A DNA stretch of 62,700 nt, from NCBI GenBank assembly GCA_032718475.1, contig JAUCBJ010007935.1, positions 1-62,700 on the forward strand, written 5' to 3'. This DNA comes from Nemertoderma westbladi. Taxonomy: Eukaryota; Animalia; Xenacoelomorpha. Shown in pieces: positions 12,129 through 62,700 of the stretch. The translations under genes and the position numbers were made by a program. The notes beneath the pieces were generated by a model. It was not told where the DNA came from. It made no database searches and saw only the letters and a program-made list of their open reading frames with translations. Within the stretch, counting starts at the first letter, position 1; every line of letters starts with the position of its first letter.

Positions 12129-12794
12129 CACGGCACAGGCACTCACTATTGGTTAGGCCTACCGATTACCATTAATTGCTTCTTTGCCTAACCTTACACC
12201 CCAGTTACAAATGATGCCTTAAAGGTTAAAGCCCCTCATAAGGAAAGGAAAAGCCCCTGGAGGGTATACACTAAAGCTCAACATTGGATCTCCCTCCAAT
12301 CAAATCAGCCAATTAGTCAAACCAACATCTATTGATATAATAATACAAGCACACACCAGCACACATAATACCCCAGTCTGTAGGTGTGAAAGAAAAGCCA
12401 GGTCACATCTGCCCTCTATTCATTAACCTGACCCAGACATTGGGCGCCAGTAAGTTATACCTTACAAATAGTCAACCCAGCCATAGCCAAGCCATCCCTT
12501 TATAATTAACCTAGATCAGTCTCGCACCTATTACAGTGCTCAGCACTGCACAGGATACCTACTGTCCGACTGTCAATCAATAAACACTCCAAGGACATAA
12601 TCTGGCGTTCCTTTTTCTGTGGACATAATTTGGCGTTCCATTAGGCCTAATTCTGATAATATTTTAAAAGTGAGATAACTTTTCATACCGTAAGCAATTT
12701 TTTTTCTTACGAGGTGAAATGTTATATTTTGCAAGGAATTCAGTTAGTTCATTAGGCTTAATCTGATAATACTGTAATAATCCATAATCAGATA

Positions 12795-14279
12795 ATGGGC
12801 GAATATAGTACTGTCCGGGTCGTTGTGAGAAATAAATCTGGAACAAAGGAAGAGCGGAATGCGACATCATCAGACAGCGAAGAAGAAAAACTAGCTGAGC
12901 TTGTTTTTGGTGTCTCAAGTAAAAAGCGTAAAAGTTTTGAAGATGGAAAGAATTCATCAGTAGTGCATGTAGTGACAAAGAAAAATAAACAATTGGAACT
13001 CCCTTCTCTAGGGTTTACTATCGATGTTGAAGGAACATCATGTTTATTGGGCGATGACGATGGAGTGGGAGATCATTTAAACTGCGAAGAATCGAGTTTA
13101 CCTGAGGGATTCCGATCGGCGGGTGGCCGGAAACCGGTGTGGACTGAGAGCGAACGCTACGCGACAACGACGAGCAAACTCAGACAGGAGTTTGAGGCGG
13201 TTCACGGGAATCCTTCATGGGCGGAGCTGGACGGATCCGAGTCGGAATCCACGGACGCGGAACTGCTGAACGAACCCGGGGGATTCCTAGACGAATCGCG
13301 TCCCGCCCGTCTCCCTAAAGGAATCCTTGACATAAAGAAACACAGCGAGTTGGGCGAGTCCCGCGGGCCCGCTCTCGCTTCGCTCGGTTTCCATCCCGCC
13401 GCGACTATCGCAATGACCGCTACCCGCAACGGCCGTCTCTCTCTGTATCGCGTCGACGAAGAACCCCAACTGATCCAGTCCGTCTTCCTCGACCGATTTT
13501 CTCTCCGTTCCGCAGCGTTCGTCTCCGATGGATCAGCCATAGTCGCCGTTTCTAACTCCGCCAACCTCATGTACAGCTACGACCTTCTCTCCGGTAAATT
13601 CTCACACTTTAATTCAATTCAAAAGGTCCGAAATAAACGAGGCTCGCTTCGCTCGTTCCGCGCGTCCCCCGACGGTAGATGGATCGTCCTCCTTGGGAGC
13701 CATGGATACATCCACGTTGTAGCGAACCCGACCTACGAGTACGTGACCTCCTTCTGTGTCAGTAGCGACGTCGTGGACGTTGGTTTCGCACCCAGCGGGC
13801 AGCTGCTGGTCCTCGGTTCCGAGAACACCGGCTACGTGTACGATGTAGCGGCGCGGCGATGCGTACACACCTTCCTGGACATCGGCGCGTACGGATGGTC
13901 CACCCTCGCCGTATCCTGTGGCAACGTGGCGACCGGCTCTCGCAACGGCGTGGTCAACGTCTACCCGCTCGCTGAATGTCTCAACCAGACGACAGTGACT
14001 CCGACTAAATCCCTCGGGAATCTAACAACCACTGTTTCGAGTTTGCACTTTAATTCCCCCTATGGAGACCTCCTAGTCGCCGCATCCAATGAGGAGACTG
14101 CAGCCTTGCGATTGGTCCAACTCCCTTCCTTACAGGTCTTCTCCAACTTTCCCACCAGATCGTCAACTCTGGGAACTATAACTTGTTTGGGAACTTCCCC
14201 GAATTCCGGGTATATCGGTTTCGGTAATTCCAAGGGTTTCGCTAAACTCTATCGTCTCGGTTACTATAACTCTTATTAG
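12795..14279 (+). CDS. UTP18: U3 snoRNA-associated protein 18 homolog (WD40 repeat, SSU processome), single exon, 494 aa
   Basis: EEEKLAELVFG N-terminal motif, KPVW, KLRQEFEAVHGNPSWA, FHP, GNVATGSRNGVVNVY, NLTTTVSSLHFN, VFSNFP and SPNSGY..GNSKG..LYRL match the recognised UTP18 motif order. Confidence 0.92.
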   Translation: MGEYSTVRVVVRNKSGTKEERNATSSDSEEEKLAELVFGVSSKKRKSFEDGKNSSVVHVVTKKNKQLELPSLGFTIDVEGTSCLLGDDDGVGDHLNCEESSLPEGFRSAGGRKPVWTESERYATTTSKLRQEFEAVHGNPSWAELDGSESESTDAELLNEPGGFLDESRPARLPKGILDIKKHSELGESRGPALASLGFHPAATIAMTATRNGRLSLYRVDEEPQLIQSVFLDRFSLRSAAFVSDGSAIVAVSNSANLMYSYDLLSGKFSHFNSIQKVRNKRGSLRSFRASPDGRWIVLLGSHGYIHVVANPTYEYVTSFCVSSDVVDVGFAPSGQLLVLGSENTGYVYDVAARRCVHTFLDIGAYGWSTLAVSCGNVATGSRNGVVNVYPLAECLNQTTVTPTKSLGNLTTTVSSLHFNSPYGDLLVAASNEETAALRLVQLPSLQVFSNFPTRSSTLGTITCLGTSPNSGYIGFGNSKGFAKLYRLGYYNSY

Positions 14280-30291: not shown

Positions 30292-32676
30292 CTACTACTA
30301 AGTCGAGCGAACTCGGACAGTGGAAGTGAGATCCTTCCAGGCTTCCCGATTCTCCATAGTTGTCGCAATTTCGATTCTCCCAAGTTCAGTATCCCTTTCA
30401 AGTTGATCTATATATGTTATGGCCGGTCGTCCACGACTACGCTCTCCATGAGTTGGTTGCCAGAAAAGTAGATCTCGTATGACCTCGTCGTTACTTCGCC
30501 AGCAGTGCCCACTGAATCTTACTCTGCGTTCACGGAGGGTGGTTGATATAGGTGGTATTGTACCATAAAGCTCGGCATTTGTCATGTGTTGTGGTTGTCT
30601 CCAGCTGATGTTGAGGGCTGCCCTTAGTAGTCTTGTGTAGCAACCATCAATTCGTTGTTTAAGTGATTTAGTCAGTGTCCAGGTCTCACCCCCGTATAAA
30701 AATACACTTTCCACTGTGACTCGAAAGAACTTAGTCTTCAGGTGCCTGGGGAGATCTGATTTCCAGATGGAATCAATTTTTGATAGAGCTACCCAAGCCT
30801 TTGCTTCCCTAACTTCTATGTCCTTTTTGCTACTCTCTATCCATGATCCTAGGTACTGTAAGTCGTCAACCTTCCTTAGTTGATTATTATCAATGGTTGT
30901 CAAGTTTCCATCAACATTAAAAGTCATGAATTCGGTCTTGGTAGCATTTATATGCAATCCAACCTCCTTAGCAGCCCTCTCCACTTTATTCAGTAGAAGC
31001 TGTGCATCTGCTAGCGTATTAGAGAGCAGGGCGATGTCATCCGCAAAGTCAGTGTCTGTGACTGTAGTTGCCGGATATCTACTACTTCTGCGTTCTTGAA
31101 GTGTGAATCCCAGATCTTCACCCTTTGCGGCCGTCCTCATTGCGTAATCCAGTACAATTACAAATAGTAATGGTGCTAATGTGTCACCTTGCAGTACACC
31201 AGCCAGGATTGAGAAAAACTCAGTTTCACCATCTCGTGAGAGTACCTGTGCTTCTGTGTCATAATATAACAATCCAATGCCAGCAACGATTACTTCTGGT
31301 ATTCCATAAGCTCTTAGGATTTCAAGCATTTTACCTCTATGGACGGAGTCGAATGCCTTCTTGAAGTCCACAAAAGTCATGACTGCGGGAAGATTCTTTG
31401 ACTTGATTCCTTCAATCAGTCTCCGTAGTGCAAGTATCTGAGCTATTGTTGATCTACTTGGTCGAAATCCGTTTTGGCTCTTACGCAGTAGTTTCTCTAT
31501 GTGAGGCCTAATCCTATATAGAATCATTTTATTGTATATTTTGGCAGCTACCTCAAGCAGACAGATCCCACGATAGTTTGTTGGTTTACCGAGGTCTCCT
31601 TTCTTGGGGAGAGGCTTTACTTGACCTTTAGTCCAAATTAGTGGAGGCTTTTCCCCTTTTAACATCCGGTTGCAAACATTCAATAATGGTCTGTTTAGCA
31701 CTCCTGTTTTCCATACCTCCGCTGGAATTACATATAATCCACTCGCTTTATTATTGGACATGCTTTTAATGCTTCTTTGGAGTTCGGCAGGTGTGAAGTC
31801 CCCTGTCTCTATAGGTAGTGTCTTGTCATATATTTTCCTTGTAGGGTTGACCTCGATGTTTGGTGGCTGCCCAAGCAAGTTGCTGAAGTGATTTTTCCAC
31901 TTCCCCACACGTTCTTCGGGACTATCGGCTTTGAGACGCCCCTTTGCGCAACTTTTCCGACCAGATACCTCATTCACAGTTTGCCAGGTAAGTCTTGATT
32001 GTTGCTGTATGTGAGCAGTTGTAATTGCTTCAATTTCATCCTATATGCACTTTTCGTGGCTGATGTTGTAGGCCAATTTAAGATCATCCTTAGCTTTCTC
32101 AACCTTGTTAATGTTTTCGGTTGTTGGTTATTCGGTTTTTACTTTGTAGGCTATCTTAAGATCGTCTCTTTTACAAGTAACCTCAGAGTTTTGCCATGGC
32201 ACATACTGTTTTCGTTTCGGTTTCTGGGGGATATGCCTCTTAGCTGATTCCTTGTGGGCTTTTATTATATTCTGGTATATTGAATCGGTGGACTGGTCTT
32301 CATCCATTGACTGGAGTGCTTCAAAGCGGTTTTGAACTTCTACTGTGTAAGCATCCTTTACTGCATTGTCAGTTCTGATTAGTAGTTGATTTGCTTGCTT
32401 GTCCTGGGTTTGTTGGCTCTCAAACTGACTCTGATCTCTGCAGTCACAATTCTGCGGTCCGAACCAATTAGGTTGAACGAGCTGTATGCCTCGCAGTTGA
32501 TCACGCTGTTTCTCCACTTTTTGTTTATAAGGATGTAATCCAGTTGTGCTTTGGTTCCATTAGGGTATTGAAAGGTCCATAGCCTCCCCTTACTCTTTTC
32601 GAATGTGGTGTTTGTTGGTATCAATTCACATTCTTCCATTAGGTCTAAAAGTAAGTACCCATTTCTATTTCTATAC
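30292..32676 (-). mobile_element. RTE-clade non-LTR retrotransposon (family A), 5'-truncated within the AP endonuclease
   Basis: 12-bp TSD ACACTTCAATTA (30280-30291 / 32677-32688) and a (TAG)n tail right after the stop codon. APE remnant (NGYLLLDLMEECEL..WTF..QLDYIL) plus RT. Confidence 0.95.
30298..32676 (-). pseudogene. RTE endonuclease-reverse transcriptase; RT part open (30298-31977), 5' part frameshifted
   Basis: NYRGICLL, QNGFR, FVDFKKAFDSV, GVLQGDTLAPLLF, FADD, YLGS and RVRFSGHCWR motifs. Confidence 0.95.
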
Positions 32677-32756
32677 ACACTTCAATTAAGGCTTAAATAA
32701 GTTTATGAAATGGTCTTCATACGTTAGTAGTAATGGCAAGTCATCAGATGGGCATT

Positions 32757-33286
32757 TGTTCACATTATTTTAATTAGCGTAATCCGAGTTACATATTTTT
32801 TGGATTTATATTTTTATGAATGTGCCAATATCAGTGGTGGGTGTGGGAGCACAAACGACGGGACCGACAGATCCTAAGCGGTCCCCGGTGCGTTGGCTAC
32901 GACTGAGCCTGAAAAGGACTCGGGCGGAGTTTTCGCATTGGGGACTTGCGAAGGATCGACTGACAGGTCTGGAACGGTTCCTGGTTGTTGGCGACGACTG
33001 AGCCTGAAAGGGACTCGGGCGCCGTTCGATAAACCGGGGATTTGTGAAGGGCCGATGACCGGACAGAAAGGAAGGGTTTGACGAGGACTGACTTCCTGGC
33101 GTGGGCTCCACAACTGGCGTTAGTACGAGCCTGAAAAGGACTCGGAAAGTTCCGACAGTTGGGGCTCACAATGGGCTGACAGATCCCTAGTTAAGCCGTA
33201 CCGCTTTCCTGAGGACCGATCCCGTTAGGGTTCGGGAAGGGTGGGATGGACATGCAACAGGGTCGAAAGACAGAGGCTCAGACTTT
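32757..33286 (+). repeat. 5' LTR of BEL element 2 (partial)
   Basis: Aligns with 38648-38746 plus 38973-39402 with scattered substitutions. Lacks ~226 bp present in the 3' LTR and is fused directly to integrase sequence. Confidence 0.88.
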
Positions 33287-33289
33287 GTC

Positions 33290-34159
33290 GTTTGGGATCT
33301 TGTCGTGAATCTCACGCAGCACGCATTTATCAACCCCCTGCGTCGGTTTGTGGCGAATAATGGTTTGTGCCGGCACATATACTCTGACAACGGAACAAAC
33401 TTCGTGGGAGGAGAAAGGGAATTAAGAGAGGCTGTCGACGGATGGTTCACTAACAAAACCGCATCATACGTCTGGAAAGAGCACCACATCCAGTGGCACT
33501 TCCAGAAACCCTTAGCACCCCATACGAGCGGGGTATGGGAAAAGCTCATTGACTTGGTTAAACGGTCCATGCGGATCGCGTTAGGGGATACCCAGGTTAC
33601 TCACGATACCTTACGCACCACATTCTGTGAGATCACGGCTACCCTAAACAACTGCCCAATAGTCCCCATACGTGATGACCCTACCGATCTGGAGCCCCTC
33701 ACCCCCAACCATCTCCTTGGTAGACCCAAGACTCACATACTCCTGGAGGCCATGTTCCAGGATCCCGAAGACATCGCGAAACACACAAGTTGGAAGAAAG
33801 CTCAAGCACTGGCGCCGCATTGGTGGAGAACTTGGTCCCAGGAGTATCTTATAACACTTCGAACAAGGAGGAAATGGAATAACACATACCGGAATATCGC
33901 AATTGGCGACATGGTACTTGTCAAAGAAGACCTTAAAGACCGCGTTCACTGGCCTGTGGCGCGTGTCGTGGAAATATTCCCTAGCAAAGATGGACTTACG
34001 AGAACAGTGACGATACGAACGGCAAAGGGCCACTACCAACGCCCTATCCAGAGGCTTTGCCTTCTCGAAGGCAATGACAGCGGTGACTCCACGAGAGGTG
34101 ATAAGTTCCCTACTCCGGATCCTGCTGCGGACATTGGTGACAATAACAAACCCGTTTAA
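33290..34159 (+). pseudogene. BEL/Pao integrase core (partial) plus DUF5641-like C-terminus
   Basis: AFINPLRRFVA, IYSDNGTNFVG, PHTSGVWE, PLTPNHLL, WWRTWSQEYL..KW, GDMVLVKE..WPVARV..DGLTRTV..RPIQRLCLLE. The first catalytic Asp is lost to the deletion. Confidence 0.93.
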
Positions 34160-34420
34160 CCCTTCCCATCCTGTTGACAAACTCTTTAAATGTGACTTAC
34201 CGACAATGATTATGGACCCCCCTTAAACCAACTGTAACCACGCATGGTATTTGTGTTTCCTCGTGTGTTATGTGGAGTCCAGCGTCACCCTACAGATGTT
34301 TCGACTGACGCAGGGTAGTTTATGTTTTGTTCACCCTGATTTTGGTCATCAGGACCAACTACCTTGGATTATCGGAAATGGGAAAGTTTCGAAGTGGAAT
34401 TCATTGTGTCCATTGCTCGA

Positions 34421-34752
34421 TCGCGTTATTCTGGTGGGTCCCTGGTGCATTCCACATGACTTCGTCGATCGAGCCTTTATGTATCCTGGTTGCGGGGCAT
34501 GTTAAGGATCCATGGTGCATCCACACGACTTCGTCAGCCAGGAAAATGTTTGTCCTGTATTGTTCCCTCTATCGCGTTATTCTGGTGGGTCCCTGGTGCA
34601 TTCCACATGACTTCGTCGATAGAGACTTTATTTTCCTCAGCCACGTTATTCTGGTGGGTCCCTGGTGTATTCCACATGACTTCGTCGGCTGAGCTTTATG
34701 TTTCTGGGAGTGTTATTCTGATGGGTCTCTGGTGCATTCCACATGACTTCAC
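34421..34752 (+). repeat. Five diverged ~70-80-bp tandem units between integrase and the extra ORF
   Basis: Core CGTTATTCTGGTGGGTCCCTGGTGCATTCCACATGACTTCGTC at ~34424, ~34501 (partial), ~34575, ~34644 and ~34712. Confidence 0.9.
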
Positions 34753-35348
34753 TTCCAGCGTTCTATTCATCGTCCATTACGTGTGCAGTTTGGGGTGTAG
34801 GCGGTGTAATGAGTCCAGCTGTAGATCCCAGACTGCCGCGTAACACCCATTCCACAACGGAGAATTCCCAAGGAGATGGTCGAAAGTAGTACGAAATGAT
34901 GAAAGGAAACAGATAACTCTACTATAAAATGAATGATGACACGTACTATTATGATGATGATAATGTGAAAATGTGCATCCCTGGTGTCTTGCGCTCATAA
35001 CTGAATGGTGGCACGTAATATTATGATAATGTTATGATGCGCATCCCTGGTGTCTTGCGCTTATAGCTCAACGATGATAGCCGGGGGGCTATAAACCCAA
35101 TGAAATGTGAAATAAATGAAGAAATGTGAAATAAATGATGAAATGTGAAAGAAATGATGAAATGTGAAATAAATGACTTGAAATTAAATGTGAAATGAAT
35201 AAACTGTAGAAATGAAAAAGACAAAAAAAGGTATAAAATGTAGAAAAGAAAAAGAAGAAAAAAAATGGGATAAAAAAGTTAAAAAAGAAACGGACATAAA
35301 AAGTAAAAAACAAGAAAAAACTGGTTGGATAATAATGAATAGCTATAG

Positions 35349-35716
35349 GGGGCCGTCCAAGTATGACATCTGCACTTTTCCCCAAAATGTTGACCCCCTC
35401 CCTCCCCTAAATCAGATGTCATCAGATAGGCGTTGACCCCCCCCCCACACCCCTCCCCTAAATCAGATTAAAAAAAATTTCGCGTCCTAATCACTGAAAC
35501 ATGGTGACTGGTAACTGAAACAGAAGGTCGTGCTACGGGCCTTCGGGGGCTTCGGCAAGCTATTACTCTTCTGCTATATCTCTTCTAGCACCTATAAATG
35601 AACATGCTGACGTCAGATTTTGGCTGACCTCCTCCCCTCCCCTCATCAGCACGTCATCAGATTTTCCCAACCCCCCCCCCCCCCCTAAAGTGCTGACGTC
35701 ATACTTGGACGGCCCC
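35349..35716. mobile_element. PIF/Harbinger-like MITE nested in BEL element 2
   Basis: ~29-bp TIRs (GGGGCCGTCCAAGTATGACATCTGCACTTT / AAAGTGCTGACGTCATACTTGGACGGCCCC) with 3-bp TSD TAG (35346-35348, 35717-35719). Confidence 0.85.
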
Positions 35717-35885
35717 TAGTAACTGTAAATGCTGAATTTAGCACCAAGAAGATGATAGATACCTATACAACAGTAATATTACCTATATTAAGTAGCAAGA
35801 AAAACAATTCTGCAGTCGCTATAGAATTCAGACTTTCTAGATTTATAGTTAACTGAATTAATTTGTAACGGACGTAATTTACAAT

Positions 35886-38394
35886 ATGGACCCAAATCGC
35901 CAGATTCTCGGCGAATTACGTACAACAATCGATTTATTGGACTATCCACAGCCTGGATCTCCTAGTTTTGATATGAAGTGGAACGCCCTGTTGAACGAGA
36001 ATGTGCGAGTCATTCGTTTCTCTGGGAGGGAGGCCCCAGATACCCGTAACCTGCAGGTGCTCCGGTTGACCGACGCTAGTACGAGCCTGAAAAGGACTTG
36101 GAACTCTGAGGCAATCGGATGAGGAGAGTTGTCATTCTGGGATACGTTCCGGCGAAGCATTTACAAATCCCGGTGTTTAATATACGACAACGAGGGCAAC
36201 GCGACGCTGACTCCGAAGGCAGTTATAATGGCGCGATGTCAGAGTTTCATCGACGATAAGAGTACATATCTCGCACACTGGGGAAACCTGGCGGAATGTA
36301 CGGAGACGCTGCAAGAGGACCGAATGACAGCCATCCAAAATCGGGATGACTATAAAGAAAAATACGGGACGAAAGAGTACGGTTGGTCGCTAATCGTTGT
36401 ACTCGGAACCCTGGACAGGTTGGCAATAGTGTGTTGAATCTTTCCAACACCCCAACAGGAAATACAGGCAGCCGGGGTGATCTGGTTACTACCGTCGGCA
36501 ATCCAGAAGATCCTGTTCGACTTTGATATAATCAAAATCGGGTCAGATATAAAAGCGGACCTCCGAAACGACTACATCAACGCTCCATTCGGAAGGAACC
36601 ATAGAGAGGACATCAGCGCGATCAGCCACTTCATCGACACCCAAACCCTGCTGGCCTGGTTACGGGTCACGGACTTTATGGGAGGGTTTAGAGAGGTGAG
36701 ACGGACCAAAGCCGGTATCAGCTAGCAGTACTAAATGGCAGTTTAGATTTTAAACCACAAAGGTTCCCGGACTACAATAAAATCTACGGCGCTCATCCGT
36801 ATTTAGCGATACGTCATGAGCGGGAAAACCGTTGGAGGGATGTAGAGAGGAAGTGGACGATCCACCAACGCTGGGATAATCCGGAGCGACGGAACTAAAT
36901 TTATGTAATGATGGAGTCGTACAAGGTCGCTAAGTTTATCTGTAAAACCCTCGATAAGCTTATTAGCGCAGTCCCAAACGCTTTCATAGATTACGAATGG
37001 AACGAGGTGATCAACCACGCGTTCAAGGCGGTACAAAATATCCCACCGGGGGATACCAAGACGCTTGAAATAATCGAGGCATGGGATCTGAATGAACCAT
37101 TCGATATCCCAACGATCAACGACCTCCTTGGCGCCGAGGAACCTATAGTGTTGTCTGAAGGAGAGGAGCTATGGAAACACGAAGGTGTCCTGTTATCCAC
37201 ACCGAAATGCCAACATGAACCAGAAGTTACCTATGGATCAGCTGCTAAGCGGATAGCCGCAACTGAGCCTATGATGGACTCGGCCGTAGCTACTCCTCTT
37301 GGCTCCGGTAGTCTGGTGAGGGAATTGGTTACCACTCTCGCGCTCAGCGACTTCGATCGTATGTGCAGGGCGTTATCTCCTTACCCGTTCCCTGGAGGAG
37401 AGGACTGGTCCATGGAAACTCCAAGCACCAGTACCCAGCGGACCCGGTCGGCAATCCAAGTGACGAAGGGACCTAGTATACCACCGACTCCTGGGAACCT
37501 CCTCGGGATTACTTCGGCGAATGTTCTGGCACCCCTTCGCCGACCGGCCATTGCTACCATTCCTACCATTCCACAGGACCCGATGAGGCTCACCCGATGG
37601 TACGCGGAACAGACGGAGTGGATTCACCATCAGAAACGAGCACCTGAAATGCGTCCAGCGGACCATAAGGAGGGATACCGCAGCAAGGCCCAACTCCGCG
37701 ACAGCACGGCGTACCGTGGGCTTCCTATGATGACAATTATTCCCAAGAAGGATAAACGGTTGGAATATTACACCGGCGTGCAGAATCCGACCTTCTTCGG
37801 TCAAGAAATGAAACTCGATGTCTGCAGTAGCTGTAGTTCGGAACAGTGTCCTCGAGGTAAGAAACAAAGAGTAACCGAGCCCTGTTTCCAAATCCTCGGG
37901 ATAGTATATTGCCCATATTGCGCCATCCCGGGCCATGATGTATCGGTTTGCCCAACCATGTACAATGTATGTACAACATGCGGATTCTGTGGGCACACGG
38001 CGAGCCCACGGTGCAATATTAAATGTCCTTCTAAGGATGTTACAGCTACCGGGAACATGGTAATGTTCGAGACGTACGCCAACGTCCACATAAAGATAAA
38101 GCAATTGAGCGCTCAAAACGTTGCATAGGAGATGGCGTGCGGGTATTTCTCGTTCCCCGAACGTTACCCCCTTTACCCTTCCACTACGTGGATCTCCTAC
38201 TTAGCGCCAATCTATTTGGTCCATTTGAGGTGATTATGCGTCTATATTCGTATACGGAAGCGTTTGGAGATGGAGAATGGTTCCAGGCGGCTCGAGCCAC
38301 CGAGCTAGAAAGGAGAATGGATCTCATCGCGATACCTCCCCGAGGAAGGGCTGCCAGGAATGCAGGCGGCGGCACTTCTTGCGTCGGCCAATGA
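35886..38394 (+). pseudogene. Retrotransposon accessory ORF: DEDDy-like 3'-5' exonuclease plus Cys/His zinc-knuckle domain (disrupted)
   Basis: ORFs 35886, 36129 and 36477 share one frame, separated by single TGA stops. A frameshift at ~36720 enters the frame of ORF 36908. ExoI-like LIYDNEG, ExoII-like LPSAIQKILFDFDIIKIGSDIKADL, FIDTQ, ExoIII-like WDNP....*IYVMME, then CPYCAIPGHDVSVC and CTTCGFCGHTASPRC. Confidence 0.65.
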
Positions 38395-38647
38395 CGCCCT
38401 TCTACCCGAATTGGCGATAGACGAAAGTCGACGGGCGAAGAAAAGGAAAGCATATCAAAGTAGGAGATGAAAGACCAGGATATTTATAGACATTTATTCG
38501 AACATTTATTTTTATATATGTACGTAAACTGACTCTAGAACAAATTAATCACGGACTATGCAATAACAAAAATTGGTTTTGTATGGGGAAATGACCTTAC
38601 GCAAACTCGATCTACCGATAGACCTCACGAAGGTAATTTGGGGGGAC

Positions 38648-39977
38648 TGTTCTCGTTATTTTAATTAGCATTACGCGAGTTACATATTTTTTGGATTTAT
38701 ATTTTTATGAATGTGCCAATATCAGTGGTGGGTGCGGGAACACAAAATTTGGGCACATTTGATAAACTGGGGGCGATTTACGGGCGAAACTTGGGGGGAC
38801 AGGGCTGTCAGGGTTGCCTGATAGTTACTATGGGCCTAGACAACCTCCTTCTACTTCGGTAGTTGGTAACCCACTAGGTCTGGGGACATGGACTTCCCTT
38901 AGCGGTCCCTGGCCATCGGTGGCGACTGAGCCTGAAAAGGACTCAGGCGTTGCTTTATGTGCTAGGGATTTGCGACGGGACTGACAAATCCTAAGCGGTC
39001 CCCGGTGCGTTGGCTACGACTGAGCCTGAAAAGGGCTCGGGCAGAGTTTTCGCATTGGGGACTTGCGAAGGATTGACTGACAGGTCTGGAACGGTTCCTG
39101 GTTGTTGGCGACGACTGAGCCTGAAAGAGACTCGGGCGCCGTTAGATAAACCGGGGATTTGTGAAGGGCCGATGACCGGACGGAAAGGAAGGGTTCGACG
39201 AGGACTGACTTCCTGGTGTGGGCTCCATGACTGGCGTTAGAACGAGCCTGAAAAGGACTCGGAAAGTTCCGACAGTTGGGGCTCACAACGGGCTGACAGA
39301 CCCCTAGCTAAGCCGTACCGCTTTCCTGAGGACCGATCCTGTTAGGGTTCGGGAAGGGTGGGACGGACATGCAACAGGGTCGAAAGACAGAGGACCGGAC
39401 TTTACTGGCATACCGACTATTCGGAGCGGGTTCTCGACTCCTATCGTGATTACGAGCCTGAAAAGGACTCGGAAAGCATAGGTAGTTGGGACCCTGTGAC
39501 GCACCGACAGAATCCCGAGCTAAGCCGCGCCGCTTTCCTAATGACTGACCCGTATGGGATCAGGAAGGGTGGAGCGGACAAGCAAAGGATCGACCGACGC
39601 TGACACTACTGTTCCCTGGACTAGGACCGAGGGAAAATGGGGAACATTAGTTAGGTCAAAATCTGAAAGTTAAGCGAACAGTGGGGTAATTAAATAATTT
39701 ACTGTAGGAATTTCATGTTGTGTATTATTGTGAATATTTGGTATATTGGTGCGGGGAAGCCCAAATTATTCTCAATCAGCGTTCAGTATTTCAGAGTTCA
39801 GGTAACTATTAAAGATTAATATCCAACCAATGAAACTCTTTTCTACCCGCAACTCTGCATTTAAGATAACGTCCTTCTCCACTCCCAATAACCGGTGACT
39901 GGCCGGAATATAGTGGTCTGAAAATTCCGCCTCCAGCATCGGCGTTTTCCCCCCTGGTGTCGGGAATAACGGCAACA
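38648..39977 (+). repeat. 3' LTR of BEL element 2 (1330 bp) containing hairpin repeats
   Basis: Starts TGTT directly after the PPT and ends AACA before the TSD. Five copies of GAGCCTGAAAAGGACTC or a single-base variant. Confidence 0.9.
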
Positions 39978-40136
39978 GCATTTAAAAAAGGCATTTTGGT
40001 AAATTTTCCCCTCCCACAATTTTTAATGTGCTTTATACAAATAAATTATATTTTTACTGTGATATTAAATGAATAAAAATTGTTACTAAGTTAGTGACAA
40101 CTTTGCAGCATTCCGTCTAAACCTTCCTATAGGTCG

Positions 40137-44305: not shown

Positions 44306-44566
44306 ATGAAGGTACTTAGAAGCACCAGATATCCGGAAACTGCATTACAACTTGATTTGGCCACAATTGATATTAATCCACTAAAAAAAGTTATAACAAC
44401 AACTTTCAGTGCCTTGGGTGCTTGGGTCATGGATAGAGAGCAGATAAAACACATAGAAGTTAGGAAAGCAAAGGCTTGGGTAGCTCTATCAAAAATGGAT
44501 ACCATCTGGAAATCAGATCTCTCCAGGCACCTGAAGTCTAAGTTCTTTTTATACGGGGGTGAGTGA
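44306..44566 (+). mobile_element. RTE family A internal fragment(s), degenerate
   Basis: IEVRKAKAWVALSKMDTIWKSDLSRHLKSKFF matches the 30298-31977 protein. Confidence 0.85.
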
Positions 44567-45182
44567 GATCTGAACACTAACGAATTCACTTGAACAACCA
44601 ATAAACCAAACACAATAGAACAGGTTACAGTTTTATTTTTTTAGAGTAATTGGATGGGATTAATTTTTATAGCGTCCAGTTCCCCCCCCACCCCTCCCCC
44701 CTATATCTGCCATGCAGACTGCAGAGGCGTAGCAAGCCCTTCTGGCTCCCAGGGGAATGAAGCTGAGATGCCCCCCCCCCCCCCTTCAATAGTTTTAACT
44801 TTTCTATTATGACGATGATTATGATTATTTTTTCTTAAATATTATATATCTAACAGTTTACTGTAACCATATAAAATCTATTTTACACAAGTTTGATAGA
44901 GTGCACTTATAATGTATAGAATTGCGTTTGAACAGGTATCCGTACAACCGGCTATAATACAATATAGTAGCGATGTTCATCGAAATTTACAAAATATTTC
45001 GATAGATTTTACCGAAATTTTCGTATCAATGATTTTCGATTATTACCAATGTAAAATAGAAAAAAATTTAAATTATTTATTGGTTATATACTAATAGAAA
45101 AATTGTCTTTGTAAAAATAAGATAATATTTAATATTTCAAAAAATTTCTGTGTGTAAAGTGGCACTTTACAATTTGCTGTGG

Positions 45183-47554: not shown

Positions 47555-48103
47555 GTGAGTTACAGTAAGTAGGCCTACCTACAACAGACCTGTACATTTG
47601 TCCTATGATGAGTAGAGGAAAGGCACTTTAGGTTGCATGCGATCGATTAGTACAATTTATTGTATCTGTGACTTATTCATCTGCCCATTTGTATCAGACT
47701 AAATCGTTTATAATCACAACAATAAACGAAATCCAAGAATGTACATAGTAGCGTTCAATTGAAAGGAACATTCTTTAGGTTTCTTATTAAGAGAATAAAT
47801 ACCAAACTTACACACTGTCTAGTGGCCTGCAATCAAAACAGACCAAAAATAAAAACAAATGTGAATTACAGAATTTATTTCAAGTAAATATAAAAATTAT
47901 GAGCAGAACCGCATGTTCCTAATAGAAAAGTAGAGAAACTAACTAATAAAGGATTATTTAAAAAAATTATTTAATGTAATTGTGTTAAGTTATACAATTA
48001 ATTATTACTGTATGTAAGTATGTAGTCTGTATTGATTACAGTAATAGGCGTAACAGAATAGGTCTGATGTTTCAAGTAATTATATTTATATGTTTCTTTG
48101 CAG

Positions 48104-50123
48104 ATCATCTTTCCACGATATTTGGAATAAAGAGTTCAAACGCATCGAGAGCGAGTTTGGTCGTGGCGTCCTCACCTACTTCACTTTCCTGCGATGGTTG
48201 CTATACTTTAACATTCCTATTACCATAGTTGCCTTGTGTTTCATCCTGATACCGCAGTTAATATGGTGGGGTATATCCGCTCCCTTTGATATTGGCGTAA
48301 CATCACCAGCGTTCACTGGCCTAGAGTTACTAACAGGCGATGGATACCTCACCAACTCGCTCCTATACATTGGTTTCTACACAAACGAAACCATTTCCCA
48401 TGGAGGCTACTATTACAATATGCCTCAGGCTTATTTCTTCGCTACATTTGGTTACTGTATCTTGTGTTTTGGCCTATTGTTGTGGAGCGCATCGAACTCC
48501 TTCCAGCACAACTACCTGCTCCAGAATGCTGGTCTTTACGGATTTTTTAGCCACAAAGTGTTTTGCAGTTACGATTACAGTATCACCAAAGTTAAAACGA
48601 TACAATGTAAGCGCACTGGGGTGTATTTCGATCTGGGGGAAACGCTATCCGATCTGAGGGCCTCTGCACCAAAGACTTGTTGCCAAATGTTTCAAAAGAT
48701 ATGTTTGAGAATATCGACAAATATATTTATTGCGCTTCTTCTCTTTGGGCTCAATTATGGAATATATCAACTTCTTCGCATAGACTATATTTCGTCCAAA
48801 GATTCACAACATAATTTAAGACTTCTTACAATACCTCTTATTATTTGTGCATGTAATTTTCTGGTCCCCATGATTTTCAATATTATTGGTTACCACGAGA
48901 ACTACTCATCTAGACGTACTAAACTCTACGTGAATACATTTCGGGAAAGTGTACTGCGGATGTCGACTCTGTTGGAGGTGGTTTATTACTGGTTGTTCAC
49001 GAGGGGTTGCGGGTCTGCGGAGGTCCCGGAGGTTGGCGTTTGTCACGACTGCTGGGAGACGGAACTTGGGCAAGAGATTTATCGTTTGGTTATAGTTGAT
49101 TTCGTGGTGTCCGTCCTGTTCGGATCATTTCTAAAGGAATTTTGTAGAAAACTACTATCGAAAATGAGATTAAGTAAAGAACCAGTTTTTGACATTACAA
49201 GCAACGTTCAAGACATAATTTATTCACAAAATTTGTGTTGGTTTGGTTTCTTTTGGTGCCCTCTCTTGCCATTAGTTGGAATTATAAAAATTATACTCAC
49301 GTTTTACATAAAATACTTTAGCGCGCGTTTGAATTGCCGACCTTCGATGCATATGTGGCGGATCGCACAAACCAAGACAGTGCTTATACTATCGCTTACA
49401 TTACAGTACCTAATTCTACTGATGACTCTTTGTTACTCTGTTTACCTCAAATCCGCATCTAAAAATTGCAGTCCATTCCGCAATTTAGGCGTCATATTCG
49501 ATGTTATTCGAAACATACGTGAACAAATAAGCGAGATAAATGACATCATTGCCTTCGTTCTAAACTACATGAGTACACAATATTTCTTTTTCTATTTGAG
49601 TTTGTTCATTTTAATGGCATGCATTTACTTCCGCATGATAAGTTCTGGGAGGCGAAAAATACTTCATATTCTTCGGAACTCAATAGCGACGGAAGGCGGA
49701 ACTAAAAAGTTCCTATTGTCTGTTATACAATACGAATTGAACGAAAAGAAAAATCGACATGCTCGTCGGTTTAATCGAGCGCAACCTTATATTCCCTCGA
49801 ATCTCGCACCGACAACTTCTGGAACAAATACGGTTTACAAATCCGCGCCAAACGTTTCTGCCAAAGAATCCGTAGTTGCGCAGGTTGACGTTCATTCATC
49901 AGCAAATGATTCATTGTTGAGTGGACCCGGACCTAATCGTGGATACGGTACACTCGAATATCCCGATGAAGTCGGAATGTGGGAGGAATTCAAACAACCC
50001 AAAGTGGTTGCAAGTGAAGGACATGTTGGTGCGTCTAAACCTCGTTCAGGAGATTGGAATAATACAGCAGTTTACAATAATGTTCGAATTCGGGCAATGC
50101 AGCACCAAGGAAAAAATAAATAA
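48104..50123 (+). CDS. TMC protein (TMC4-8/TMC7-like), exon 3; spliced product ~912 aa
   Basis: TTTGCAG| acceptor. W..EFKRIESEFGRGVLTYFTFLRWL, CWETELGQEIYRL signature, FDITSNVQDIIYSQ..WFGFFWCPLLP and SKNCSPFR motifs. Multiple hydrophobic helices. Confidence 0.95.
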
Positions 50124-57198: not shown

Positions 57199-60100
57199 TT
57201 AATCAGCTGCCTCTTTAATGTCAATAAGGTAATTACCAATCTTAACTGAGTGACCATGCTTGGCTTTATCCAGAGAATTTGTGTCTATTTGAATGGAATA
57301 AACTCCATCTTCTTTATTTCCACTTATAAAGTTCATGTTATCCGCCACTCGTTGTTCTTCTCTACGATGGATATCGGTTTCTCGACTGAACGATTGCTTG
57401 TAAAGCTCATTCCCTTGCCCAATCGTTGATGATTGTTTATTAAAATTGTTTAGGAATGAATTCACGTGTTCACCTAGTTGTTTTCGCTCACTTGTTTTGT
57501 TCCAGTGAGACGGTAATGTGTTTGGAAGATGATTGACCACATTCCCCTCCATATTCATAACCTGTGTTGGGCAATCTAAGGTCATTGGTTTAATTGTTCG
57601 GTTTGTAAGGTATGGTGGTTTATTTACAGTGTTCGAAGTATTGATGTTAGAAAATTGGCCGGATAAGTTTGGAACGCCTTGATGCATATTATTCGTATTT
57701 GAATTTGCAGGATATGATTTATATTGTCTATCAATAATATTTTTTGAACGCAACAAGGATGACCACTGAGTTTCAGTGAGTGTTTGATAATCTTTGGGGT
57801 GAGATGATGTTGGAATGCCCTGTATTCCTTTTGGGTTAGATATATGACCTGTATTAGTGTCCATTTTCGAAATATCATATGGTTGGGACAAATGAGCCGG
57901 TAGATTGAAATTAGTTTGAACAGGAAATTCATTTGTGTTATATAAGTTTCCATCATTTATATTACTTGCATTTATGAGTTTATTATCATTAATAGCATAA
58001 CTATCTCTTATTATCTTCTCAGGTGTGGTTACCATTGGGACAAAACAAGGTTGTGAGGTAATGACATGTCCAGTTTGATATTTGACTAACTGATTTGGTT
58101 GATTCGACTTTACAAATAAAGGATCTTCAATTGGCAATTTTCGCTTCTTTATCAACTCATTCCGGTTACTTGGCAAGCCATTAAGATTTAATAATGGCGA
58201 ACACTCGCAATTAGGGGGGTGATAGATCTCTTGTTTTTGTTGTGGTCGAATACGGTAGTTGCGCAAGTTGTTGTTTATTGGCGGGTTGCACATTTGATTT
58301 AATGTCCGACTAGATTGATCCAATTGCGGAATCATCGGGTTCAAGTTTGATGAAAATGTTTTACAATGGAAATTATCATTTAAACTATAATCATTGAAAT
58401 AGTTATTGTTATTCATTATGTATTTATCTTGTGCAGCAGCCGTTACTGGTTGCATCGACATGAACTGATCGTTTGGACCAAATTGTCCAAAGGACTGTAT
58501 CGGTGTGTGATTCAGAAATTGTTCATGATGCAAAACATTTGGTTGTATCTGGTGTTGTGGATGAAGTGGCCATGACTGAGGAAGGTAACTGGATTGCTGA
58601 TAGAATATTGGAAGTCTCGGATATGGAATTCCTGCCCCAGGAGATCCGTACATTATTTGTTGAGATTGAAAGTTACTATTTGGGTAAAATTCATTCCTCT
58701 TATCTGGAGGACGAAATTGCATTCCAAACATAGGTGGTCTCTGGGCAGGAACATGTGACCCATTTCGAACCATCGGTTGATAGGAAGTTTGATTATTATC
58801 AATGTTGTTCAAAATTTGCTGGCAATCCTGGCTGTATTGTTGTAAGCAAATGTCATTTTGATTCAGTGTTGTCCTATGCTGGGCATCATAGGGATTGGGA
58901 TGATTTTTCTCATAACACATTCTCAAACTACTATCATTTGTAACAATAGGAAAGCTGTTTATATTATTAATATTATTACACTTGGCTGGTATGGGTTGAA
59001 TTTGTGGCATATGAATTGGCATAAAAGGTTCCATATTTGTATCCAAACAATTTGTTGCCCCATACATAGTTTTGTATGTTTCATTGTTTAAAATAGGCCT
59101 ACTATAATTTGAACCAGAGCTAATAGGCATTGTAGGGATATTTAGCTTCCTCTTTTTCAATTTACATGGTTTTTTTAATTTTGGTCTTTGAGAAATTGAT
59201 TGTATTTTACCAACATTTGTCTTTCTGATATTAGGAGCATCATTTAAGGTTTGCATATTTTCTCCGAAACTGTTAAAACCAAACGCAGTCAAAGGGTCAT
59301 TTTTTGCAAAATTATCTGACCTATGCAATGGAATTACATCGTCAATACAATCGGATTTTGAGGGCATGGGGTTTGATATACATTTTCCATTCAGCGAATT
59401 AATTAGAGACGTTACAGGGTTCGTATTACTGAATTGCATTGAAGTTGAAATTTCATCATATGCTGTAATGGTTTGAGGAATAGCATCAGTTGGTGTTACA
59501 CCTGTATATTTGGAAACATCCAAAGGTATGTTGAGATAATCATATGGCTTTTGTTTCACCATTTGGAAGCTTTTTGTGACATTACTTACAATCATATTTC
59601 TTCTATCAGGGTCACTGCTTTGAGAATTTTTAGCAATATCATGCGCTCCTCTTGCATCAACTAACTGACCCATTTTTTTGAAGCCTTCTGTACCATTTTC
59701 ACACAATGTTGGTAAACATGTAGATATCTCAAGTGATTTTGAAACACTTTCATCAGCATTTGTGTTAGCCTCTATGGAGTTTTCAGTATCGTGTTTATAT
59801 CTTTCCTTACTTTGATCAATACAATTTTTGCTTCCAGTAATTAACGAATCTCTTGCTGTGGTACTTTCATTACCTTTAACACCAGGGCTACTAATATCAG
59901 TTATTGATCCTGCCATTTGAAATGTTGATAACGTTTTGTGCAAATCATTCTCAATTGGGTCCACCGACATATATTCAGGGTTATTAATTTCTACATAATT
60001 GTCAGAGGTGACAGCTTTGCACATGGAGTTTTTATTGGCATCTTCACTAACGAAAGGCCATTTGCTTTTCATGTTTAAAGCCATTGTCTGCAAAGACATT

Positions 60101-62571
60101 TGAGGATTGTTTTCATGATTTGGTAAAGATGTTTTACTGGGATGTAAAGTTGTTGTTGTTTTACCGCTGCTGCTACATTCATAAGTAGATTCTAATTGTT
60201 TCACATATTTGAGTTTTCTAAAATCACTAAAACTTGTGTTAGTTCCAATATTTACATCAAACTGACCCAAGTGGATTTTTGGTTTACTTAAAAGGTAAGA
60301 TTCTTTAGTGTCTTTCTTTGGTTTTCGATTGCTTTTTTTACTTAATGAGTATATATTAGAAACCTTAATAGGTTCCGCTTCATTCGAACAACTGGTTGTT
60401 TGGTTAGTTGTACAGTTGCTTGAAGTACTAACAATTTCACTATAATACCTATATTTTTCAGATGATTCCAGATAGCTGGTTGTTGGTAATGTATTCATAT
60501 TTTCAGAATGTTCGAGACAAGCAACTGATGGCATTTCTATTCCATATGAATCAACATCGTTTGCAATAAATTCATCTTCCACTATGATTTTTTTTATTAC
60601 GCTCATGCTGTCAATTTTGCAATCAATAGGATTACCAATTGAATTCCCTTTATATCCATTAGTATCGCATTCTGTGTCATTAGAAGAAATGTCGATCAAA
60701 TCCCCCATCACACTTGGATCGATCACATACTTACCATTATTGCCACTACAAACCATAGATGTGGTGTCATCACCAACATTTGCTGAATCATTTGATGAAA
60801 CGATATCCAATAAAGTTTCCATTTCTCTGGAATTTATCGAAAAGTTGTTCTCAGCATTGTTATCATCACTAGTACTGTCCTCTTCTGCATGTTTGGAGTA
60901 AGATGTGAGCTGATTTATAGCTCTCTGTATTTCATCCCATTCAGTATCAGAGTCAATATTATCACTTTTGCAGATTTCAGGTGTTACACATACATTTGGG
61001 CATAAATTTGCCGTAGATGTTATATCCCCAACACCAATTCTACTAGTAGTATTGGCTTTAGAACCCAATGATATTTGCTGTGATGATGATGAGCCCTCTT
61101 TTGCCGTAAAGTAATTATTATCAGCATTTTTGTTGCAATTACCCATATGGTTTGTTTGCTTTCCTTGGTTCACTTTATTTTTATTCTTGAGTTGTTTTTT
61201 ATGCTGTAATTTGTAGTTTTTTTGTTCCACTTTCCTTAAAGGCAAAGTTTGATTATGCTGTAGTTTTTGAAGATCATCTGTTTTATGGGATTTAATCATA
61301 AAATTACTGTTTAATTCTGGCGTCAAAGTTTTTATTTCTCTTGTATTTTCTTTATGGTATTTGACAGGATTAGAAATTGATTTGCTTTTCTGCATATTTT
61401 TTCTTAATGTCATTATTCGCCGGAATTTTTTCTGAATATTATTCTTTCTATCATAGTCTGTAGTAAGTAACTGCATTGGAATATTTGTTGTTGTTATTTC
61501 TTTGTCTTTCGATGGAGGAACATTTGTCTGTTGCTTATGTAGTGGATGAACATATGGTCCGGGATCAGTGGCCATTTGATTATCTAAGATTTCTTTCTTA
61601 CTACGACGACTTGCAAACACATTTAGCTTTGCCTTTGGCAATACCTTCAAGGAATTGTTGTTATTCGAAAACTCTGAAGTTTTCTGTACTTTATCAAGCC
61701 TTATGTTATCTGTATTTGTAGTGGGTTTTGAAACTTCTTTACCAGAGAATAAAGTAACAAGCTTATTATTTATAGGCAGCCTAGTAAGCACGGGTCCCAG
61801 TAACATGTTCTCCTTCGCCAAACCCATTGTTTCAAAGGTTTCAATCTTAGCAGAATCTCGCAAAATACTTGCCTTTTCATCATCTTGAACATGATCATGC
61901 GCATGCCCGCTTGTAATATTGTGGGGACTACACTGAATAAATGAAGACAACTTTGTCGATTTTCCAATATGCCATTTCTTTTTGGGCTTCGGCGTTTGGG
62001 TACTGGATTCGTCATTAGCGACAGAGATGCCATTGTCACCACGAGTTTCATCGTGGATGTCCTCAATATTTCTAGAATGCATTGACTCCGATTTTCGATC
62101 GTTGTTTTGCCTAGATTGATGGCTTCTATATGATCGTAATGCGTTGTCATCTTCAGTATCCTCATTTTCGTCAGTGTAAAATGTTGTATCAGATTGAAAA
62201 TTCTCCATTGACGTTTCACCATCTGAATGGTCTGAGTTATATGAATCGCTTGTATTGTTATCATGTCGCCCATGTTCAATCGTTTGCGCATTAAATAATT
62301 CTATTCCTTTGTGACACAGAGAGCTTTCTTGAATTTTTAGTTTTCCTGTTTTATTACTACTTTTTCCCAAGTATTTACTAATGTATAACGACTTCACTTT
62401 CTGTAATTTTGCTCGCTTATGTAAGTATTCAGGAGCTCCGATATCACAATCACTGCCCCGTGATTGTTCGACATGGTATTCCTCTTGGGTTCCCAATTGA
62501 TTCCTAGTATAATCTCCTCCACTGTCTTCTGAACTGCCATCGCTATTAAGTTCATCATATTGACCATTCAT
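57199..62571 (-). CDS. Uncharacterised 1790-aa low-complexity (N/S/T/K-rich; Q/P-rich C-terminal) protein; possibly the large last exon of a longer gene
   Basis: 5.4-kb stop-free frame in AT-rich DNA is far beyond chance. No domain recognised. A possible phase-0 acceptor TTTAACAG| lies 36 nt upstream of the ATG. Confidence 0.75.
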   Translation of the reverse strand: MNGQYDELNSDGSSEDSGGDYTRNQLGTQEEYHVEQSRGSDCDIGAPEYLHKRAKLQKVKSLYISKYLGKSSNKTGKLKIQESSLCHKGIELFNAQTIEHGRHDNNTSDSYNSDHSDGETSMENFQSDTTFYTDENEDTEDDNALRSYRSHQSRQNNDRKSESMHSRNIEDIHDETRGDNGISVANDESSTQTPKPKKKWHIGKSTKLSSFIQCSPHNITSGHAHDHVQDDEKASILRDSAKIETFETMGLAKENMLLGPVLTRLPINNKLVTLFSGKEVSKPTTNTDNIRLDKVQKTSEFSNNNNSLKVLPKAKLNVFASRRSKKEILDNQMATDPGPYVHPLHKQQTNVPPSKDKEITTTNIPMQLLTTDYDRKNNIQKKFRRIMTLRKNMQKSKSISNPVKYHKENTREIKTLTPELNSNFMIKSHKTDDLQKLQHNQTLPLRKVEQKNYKLQHKKQLKNKNKVNQGKQTNHMGNCNKNADNNYFTAKEGSSSSQQISLGSKANTTSRIGVGDITSTANLCPNVCVTPEICKSDNIDSDTEWDEIQRAINQLTSYSKHAEEDSTSDDNNAENNFSINSREMETLLDIVSSNDSANVGDDTTSMVCSGNNGKYVIDPSVMGDLIDISSNDTECDTNGYKGNSIGNPIDCKIDSMSVIKKIIVEDEFIANDVDSYGIEMPSVACLEHSENMNTLPTTSYLESSEKYRYYSEIVSTSSNCTTNQTTSCSNEAEPIKVSNIYSLSKKSNRKPKKDTKESYLLSKPKIHLGQFDVNIGTNTSFSDFRKLKYVKQLESTYECSSSGKTTTTLHPSKTSLPNHENNPQMSLQTMALNMKSKWPFVSEDANKNSMCKAVTSDNYVEINNPEYMSVDPIENDLHKTLSTFQMAGSITDISSPGVKGNESTTARDSLITGSKNCIDQSKERYKHDTENSIEANTNADESVSKSLEISTCLPTLCENGTEGFKKMGQLVDARGAHDIAKNSQSSDPDRRNMIVSNVTKSFQMVKQKPYDYLNIPLDVSKYTGVTPTDAIPQTITAYDEISTSMQFSNTNPVTSLINSLNGKCISNPMPSKSDCIDDVIPLHRSDNFAKNDPLTAFGFNSFGENMQTLNDAPNIRKTNVGKIQSISQRPKLKKPCKLKKRKLNIPTMPISSGSNYSRPILNNETYKTMYGATNCLDTNMEPFMPIHMPQIQPIPAKCNNINNINSFPIVTNDSSLRMCYEKNHPNPYDAQHRTTLNQNDICLQQYSQDCQQILNNIDNNQTSYQPMVRNGSHVPAQRPPMFGMQFRPPDKRNEFYPNSNFQSQQIMYGSPGAGIPYPRLPIFYQQSSYLPQSWPLHPQHQIQPNVLHHEQFLNHTPIQSFGQFGPNDQFMSMQPVTAAAQDKYIMNNNNYFNDYSLNDNFHCKTFSSNLNPMIPQLDQSSRTLNQMCNPPINNNLRNYRIRPQQKQEIYHPPNCECSPLLNLNGLPSNRNELIKKRKLPIEDPLFVKSNQPNQLVKYQTGHVITSQPCFVPMVTTPEKIIRDSYAINDNKLINASNINDGNLYNTNEFPVQTNFNLPAHLSQPYDISKMDTNTGHISNPKGIQGIPTSSHPKDYQTLTETQWSSLLRSKNIIDRQYKSYPANSNTNNMHQGVPNLSGQFSNINTSNTVNKPPYLTNRTIKPMTLDCPTQVMNMEGNVVNHLPNTLPSHWNKTSERKQLGEHVNSFLNNFNKQSSTIGQGNELYKQSFSRETDIHRREEQRVADNMNFISGNKEDGVYSIQIDTNSLDKAKHGHSVKIGNYLIDIKEAAD

Positions 62572-62700
62572 CGTTTTGAAAGTATTATTCCTTGTGCCGT
62601 TGGTATTCTGTTAAATATATTTGTGGAAAACCTAAAAAATTACACCAAATTATAGAATTATTATTGTTTATATTTCTATTTCAGATAAGGGGGGGGGGGG

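Follow-up and report, generated by a model that had tools for sequence, protein, structure and literature searches.

One stretch of DNA from Nemertoderma westbladi (GenBank assembly GCA_032718475.1, contig JAUCBJ010007935.1, positions 1–62,700; hereafter the window, 62,700 nucleotides) was analysed in this study. The evidence supports the presence of a native third gene, one that encodes zinc knuckles and has been maintained by selection, in a family of BEL/Pao-type long terminal repeat (LTR) retrotransposons. Judged from its sequence, this gene, here called the cargo gene, is probably a DEDDy-derived orphan.

The LTR element that carries the cargo gene is 7.2 kb long and spans positions 32,757–39,977, as determined by BLAST self-comparison and by reading of the sequence. 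It represents a BEL/Pao-type LTR retrotransposon, in a copy that is dead and has lost internal sequence. Both LTRs start with TGTT and the 3′ LTR finishes with AACA, and the element is flanked on the forward strand by the target-site duplication GCATT at 32,752–32,756 and 39,978–39,982, the duplication named in the initial annotation. Contigs from three DNA runs (X1–X3; two samples from two studies) were aligned to the window, and in all three runs contigs join position 32,756 to 39,984, which confirms the limits of the element as well as the left duplication. Because both flanks are themselves repeats, this join need not represent an empty allele or a polymorphic insertion. The complete 3′ LTR (38,648–39,977, forward strand) measures 1330 bp, slightly longer than the 0.2–1.2 kb reported for Belpaoviridae (PMC8742986), and is preceded at a distance of one base by a polypurine tract (PPT; 38,640–38,646, forward strand). 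The 5′ LTR survives as a forward-strand remnant recognized by self-BLAST (32,757–33,286), which has no equivalent of 38,747–38,972, ends near the equivalent of ~39,403 and differs from the 3′ LTR at 24 of 512 aligned bases. This remnant abuts the integrase tail directly, the regions encoding gag, protease, reverse transcriptase (RT) and RNase H having been deleted. Lost with them are further features by which Belpaoviridae are recognized, the PR-RT-RH-IN order and a tRNA-Arg/Gly primer site.

With the RT deleted in the present copy, the assignment to BEL/Pao is based on the element ends, that is, two LTRs with TG..CA ends, a target-site duplication and a PPT before the 3′ LTR, together with a BEL-type integrase C-terminus at 33,287–34,159 (forward strand) that contains DUF5641 (PF18701, E 4.6e-30), a domain that we take to be a BEL/Pao marker. 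The integrase identity of this region comes from motifs read by eye, and no Pfam match to rve was obtained in it. Downstream of pol, between the integrase and the cargo gene, imperfect tandem repeats with a 69-bp unit occupy 34,416–34,750 (forward strand), and their copy number varies among contigs (joint from 34,847 back to 34,565). They are followed by a MITE without assigned strand (35,348–35,716), which has terminal inverted repeats of ~20 bp and a TA duplication. Because contigs in all three runs join 35,345 to 35,717 without it, the MITE is a later insertion missing from other copies of the element; its own contig depth is high. Neither the MITE nor the internal deletion appeared in the initial annotation, which had correctly placed the cargo gene between the integrase tail and the PPT and 3′ LTR.

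The cargo gene lies before the 3′ LTR in sense orientation; it is interrupted, extends over at least 746 codons and encodes two zinc knuckles. Its first frame (35,886–36,722, forward strand) comprises 279 codons from an ATG at 35,886 and contains only two stops, at 36,120 and 36,435, compared with 14 and 11 in the other two frames. Its second frame (36,722–38,128, forward strand) continues for 468 codons, with a stop at 36,896 and the TAG at 38,126 (2 stops in 469 codons versus 27 and 25 in the other frames). The breaks reported earlier, namely TGA at 36,120 and 36,435, a frame change near 36,720 and TAA at 36,896, are all where they were said to be, and the reported motifs could likewise all be located (D-x-E at 36,186, Asp at 36,558, FIDTQ at 36,630, W at 36,872, Y-x-x-x-E at 36,902 and the knuckles). 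A fifth open reading frame (ORF) piece, which had brought the gene to ~830 codons, was not recovered: past the TAG at 38,126 each of the three frames contains 2–3 stops in ~114 codons and none is preferred. The longer estimate is thus not confirmed, and the candidate 3′ end at 38,129–38,470 (forward strand; ORF reading) is one of several possibilities. Because only one 19-residue window of the cargo protein reaches a hydropathy of 2.0, which coincides with a predicted strand pair, and because no glycoprotein family matched the protein, the cargo product is not env-like.

Many further copies of the cargo gene are represented in the DNA runs. On 871 bases of the gene we identified 249, 299 and 204 contigs in X1, X2 and X3, respectively, about one third of which (91, 96 and 91) are less than 90% alike; contig depth was not taken as a measure of copy number. 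Among 41 classified differences between copies, which are the best-supported rows rather than a random sample, 23 are synonymous, where changes of these types would be expected to give 11.2 (p ~1e-4), and 23 fall at third positions, where 12.7 would be expected (p 7e-4). These 41 consist of 35 of 40 rows from the 871-base set (the best 40 of 110) and 6 of 10 other cargo rows; five rows that lay in a break codon or adjoined the frame change, one duplicate and three rows in the 3′ end region were dropped. At two of the internal stops nearly all contig depth differs from the present copy, which suggests that both stops are confined to it. The frame change near 36,720 gained no such direct confirmation, as none of the indels in the contigs came up to the 30% threshold there. 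These observations support a multi-copy cargo gene that is real and has been kept by selection.

A 17-nt motif links the cargo gene to the LTRs. Nine copies are present in the window, where 0.01 would be expected, and all lie inside the element: three in the 5′ LTR remnant (32,905, 33,000 and 33,127), five in the 3′ LTR (38,928, 39,022, 39,117, 39,244 and 39,454) and one in the cargo ORF (36,083). The last is part of a forward-strand block of 24 nt (36,080–36,103) that shares 23 of 24 bases with 39,451–39,474 (BLAST E 6.4e-6). Because this motif is common to the gene and the LTRs, we regard the cargo gene as native rather than as a nested insert. The initial annotation had described it as a gene captured by the element; its membership in the LTR family holds in the form of a native third gene, the word captured is an interpretation, and no donor gene was found. 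Each of the six motif copies that were folded as RNA forms the same short stem, closed by a loop that contains GAAA, and in four copies an A is bulged out; z-scores lie between −1.3 and −4.4. Pairing holds in 93% of cells, and C-G, U-G and U-A all occur at one position; the covariation is not above the shuffle control (296/500). No Rfam match was found within the element and no tRNA in the window. The RNA hairpin is therefore treated here as a lead, which a DNA enhancer repeat would fit equally well.

Evidence for a DEDDy exonuclease ancestry comes from the central part of the cargo protein. Two profiles were built from real DEDDy domains, one WRN/EXD-like (123 domains), a type chosen on account of the idea in the initial annotation, and one RNase D-type (31 domains). 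The WRN/EXD-like profile matched cargo residues 202–242 (HMM score 9.8 bits, P 2e-5), a score reached by none of 1000 shuffles and none of 600 six-frame decoys; multiplied by 24,736 Pfam families this P value becomes ~0.5, so that the match would fail a blind library search. The RNase D-type profile did not match the cargo, and 101 of 1000 shuffles scored as high. When eight blocks were scored in order, the cargo reached 37.0 against a mean of −4.0 (sd 7.8) for 400 shuffles, none of which scored as high (z 5.3); 50 real-protein decoys scored at most 14.9 and true members 127–172. The signal is located in a DEDDy-like core at 36,489–36,656 (forward strand), consisting of a helix, strand 4, the ExoII Asp at 36,558 and the FIDTQ strand, and the ExoII Asp block is followed by the strand-5 Asp motif as in DEDDy nucleases. 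The ExoII block scores 17.3 bits (next best −6.8 among 720 positions) and the FIDTQ strand block 13.4 bits (next best 5.7 among 737 positions). The same core was aligned by hhalign with E 0.0013–0.002 and a probability of 13–18%, above all 60 shuffles for one profile, and MAFFT placed Asp 36,558 on the ExoII column in all three modes. Placement by MAFFT of four or more of six columns is non-discriminating, as it was obtained for the real sequence and also for 11 of 40 shuffles.

The outer motifs are less clear. The candidate ExoI motif (36,186–36,194, forward strand), recognized by eye as the sole D-x-E of the first piece and located after hydrophobic residues, was outside the top five of the block scan and was aligned in none of the three MAFFT modes. 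The candidate W and ExoIII Y-x-x-x-E (36,872–36,916, forward strand; W 36,872, Y 36,902 and E 36,914, also by eye) was likewise outside the top five and was placed in one of three MAFFT modes, which is non-discriminating. Its last residue is Glu where the Y-x-x-x-D of the profile has an Asp that is 97% conserved; acidic residues are nevertheless present at all four candidate active-site positions. The motif order that had been called established thus holds for the ExoII and FIDTQ blocks and not for ExoI and ExoIII, and the alignment originally proposed requires insertions of ~50 and ~28 residues in addition to the Glu in ExoIII. Only ~55 residues of the cargo are aligned.

Every library search was blank. 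There was no Pfam match to PF01612 at E≤1 for either frameshift-split piece or at E≤10 for the ExoII piece, and no match for the cargo pieces in Pfam, NCBIfam, PHROGs or PDB sequences. A search of 1.84 billion representatives with the first piece returned no match, nor did word-based searches of the first piece against proteins of 490–2000 aa and of the second piece against proteins of 257–819 aa. No cargo homologue was found in metagenome contigs or among phages and plasmids, where three matches at E 3 were unrelated. The 408-aa ORF had no match in the ESM Atlas, a blank that shows neither novelty nor absence, and BLASTP against Escherichia coli RNase D gave a best E of 0.47. A single-sequence AlphaFold2 model had a pLDDT of 30.7 and retrieved nothing at E≤0.001 with Foldseek, the model being too poor to inform. 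The DEDDy fold proposed earlier therefore stands on its central core in a targeted pairwise test, against blank library searches, and, with the precedent in other LTR elements taken into account, we consider it likely that the cargo product has this fold. Given the fold, the chances that the predicted protein is an active enzyme appear evenly balanced.

Two adjacent zinc knuckles were identified by pattern match at 37,910–38,014 (forward strand). The knuckles, CX2CX4HX4C (37,910–37,951) and CX2CX3GHX5C (37,970–38,014), are six residues apart, and the Pfam family zf-CCHC_4 matches them only at E 5.1. Their spacing is similar to that of the knuckles in retroviral nucleocapsid, and zinc knuckles point to single-stranded RNA. 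We tentatively prefer, at somewhat below an even chance, a reading in which the product would be an RNA-binding DEDDy 3′–5′ exonuclease of WRN/EXD-like type that acts on the RNA of the element and blunts silencing. In such a scheme, a third gene under selection in the env position of a BEL/Pao-type family would be read from a separate (subgenomic) mRNA, and the knuckles would hold its product on the RNA of the element, with the repeated hairpins as a possible docking site. Exposed 3′ ends in the element's own ribonucleoprotein might then be trimmed by the nuclease domain, most plausibly those of small-RNA guides from the host or of element transcripts that are damaged, and silencing would be blunted as a consequence. 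Exonucleases that serve proofreading and immune suppression in viruses, as described in the available part of PMC7968707, provide a precedent.

Several other explanations were weighed against this one. The cargo gene might be real and selected and yet not DEDDy at all; its product would then be an orphan accessory protein with zinc knuckles, in which the ExoII-like stretch has arisen by chance. The blank library searches and the shortness of the aligned segment favor this explanation, but two blocks that are correctly ordered and spaced and that both outscore all others of more than 700 positions by a wide margin, the block score far above shuffles and the precedent in other LTR elements speak against it, and we find it rather unlikely. 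A similarly small chance is given to a product that has retained the DEDDy fold as a non-catalytic RNA-binding adaptor, which would recognize the repeated bulged hairpins of the element's RNA and serve in the export, germ-line transport or packaging of that RNA, or feed back on the mRNA that encodes it. The Glu in ExoIII and the unrecovered ExoI would agree with loss of catalysis, and the confinement of the motif to the element, with one copy in the cargo ORF, and the common stem and GAAA-containing loop of every folded copy would agree with such a target; on the other side are the acidic residues at all four candidate positions, the hairpin covariation at control level and the equally possible DNA enhancer repeat. 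A known case is Drosophila Egalitarian, whose DEDDy domain, according to the available part of bioRxiv 10.1101/2025.08.03.668247, binds RNA stem-loops that have a bulge, among them one from the I factor retrotransposon, and does so with a dispensable active site. Like the cargo product, Egalitarian is a long protein with a DEDDy domain, an analogy drawn from its description; unlike the cargo gene, it is a host gene, and no knuckles are mentioned in that description. Quite unlikely is a Rev/Tat-like accessory system encoded by a BEL/Pao lineage, in which an orphan DEDDy-fold zinc-knuckle protein would bind the GAAA-loop hairpin, present in five LTR copies and a single copy in the mRNA of the protein itself, and would use its nuclease domain to protect or process element RNA against small-RNA silencing.

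An active exonuclease might instead work on DNA, proofreading or trimming cDNA ends before integration in the way that WRN-exo acts on DNA, and the best match is indeed to the WRN/EXD-like rather than the RNase D profile. The zinc knuckles, which in general suggest single-stranded RNA, argue against this possibility. Dada DNA transposons also contain DEDDy domains, proposed in the available portion of PMC3706591 to process 3′ ends; against a role on DNA here, the cargo gene is separate from pol and most BEL/Pao elements replicate without such a gene (PMC8742986), and we consider the DNA substrate improbable. It is more improbable still, to a high degree, that the cargo stands outside the LTR family, either as an independent insertion nested in the element or as a host gene captured on a single occasion. 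No contig covers LTR, integrase and cargo together, which leaves some room for this explanation, but the 24-nt block common to the gene and the LTRs, the synonymous bias among the many diverged copies, a contig of diverged sequence that covers 38,277–38,631 and adjoins the PPT, and the GC and AT skew of the cargo, which match those of the integrase region, all argue for a resident gene. Moreover, none of the best 15 of 84 joints removes the cargo alone.

An RNase D-like domain has reportedly been noticed in a nematode Cer element, although none of the texts consulted here describes one. DEDDy-type ORF3s were described in 2017 in the rotifer LTR elements Juno and Vesta and in Athena/Terminon elements (PMC5408684), where, in the text available, DEDDy exonucleases were called previously unreported in retrotransposons, an account repeated in the available parts of PMC6431247 and PMC5718144. 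Because of this description, the novelty of the cargo gene is lower than the initial annotation had scored it. As in Juno and Vesta, the cargo is a sense third gene between pol and the 3′ LTR in the place of env, and as in rotifer ORF3 it appears DEDDy-like with one altered acidic residue; some rotifer ORF3s have a Cys-His-Cys zinc motif. In rotifers, however, DEDD is changed to DEED (activity is not shown in the accessible text of PMC5408684), whereas here, set against the rotifers by description, the change would affect the fourth residue. The elements that carry rotifer ORF3 belong to lineages other than BEL/Pao, and the present protein, of at least 746 residues, has two nucleocapsid-like knuckles far downstream. 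The synonymous bias observed here also differs from rotifer ORF3, for which no significant departure from neutrality is reported in the same portion of PMC5408684.

Compared with the WRN-exo/EXD2/Mut-7 group of DNA_pol_A_exo1 (PF01612), the ExoII helix-strand-Asp block and the next strand align, whereas PF01612 itself is not matched, ExoI and ExoIII are not recovered and long insertions are required. The layout LTR-(gag-pol)-extra gene-PPT-LTR is shared with env-bearing BEL/Pao elements such as nematode Cer13 and Atlas (PMC8742986 and the available part of PMC9094657), but the extra gene of the present element is not env-like. The ICTV profile of Belpaoviridae includes only gag, pol and env (PMC8742986). 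The word "exonuclease" does not occur in the accessible portions of PMC3118150 and PMC2774666, and those of PMC3985635, PMC9094657 and PMC554778 contain no BEL exonuclease; a limited literature search, which covered few subscription papers and did not match the slash spelling, found no report of a BEL/Pao exonuclease. DEDDy-type third genes are thus already known in LTR retrotransposons, and the putative one described here would have a BEL/Pao-type host for which we found no earlier report.

Beyond gag and pol, and env in some cases, animal LTR retrotransposons are thought to hold little. If BEL/Pao elements have a nuclease-like third gene under selection, what was observed in rotifers would apply to a further major superfamily. 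It then becomes testable whether animal retrotransposons, like arenaviruses and nidoviruses, encode enzymes of their own that counter silencing or process RNA, with the repeated hairpin as a concrete candidate target.

Elsewhere in the window, a second, unrelated BEL-type element lies on the reverse strand at 4057–11,923; it contains a gag-like ORF (5725–7593) with DUF1759 (E 1.5e-6), a 259-aa orphan ORF (7547–8326) just upstream of the gag-like ORF, and near-identical repeats (4122–4376 with 11,026–11,280, and 4886–5619 with 11,180–11,923). A satellite array of 40-bp units, with ~334 overlapping matches that are ~96% alike, extends from 15,474 to ~29,000. Directly to the left of the LTR element is a non-LTR retrotransposon on the reverse strand (30,298–32,681) with a 580-aa RT ORF (RVT_1, E 2.1e-35), to which fragments at 44,357–44,656 are related. 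Because long, uninterrupted, host-like ORFs are present at 12,762–14,279 (forward strand; a WD40 protein, UTP18-like by eye), 48,054–50,123 (forward strand; a TMC channel-like protein, PF07810, E 2.2e-32) and 57,199–62,610 (reverse strand; 1803 aa, low-complexity), the window suggests an intron-poor animal genome.
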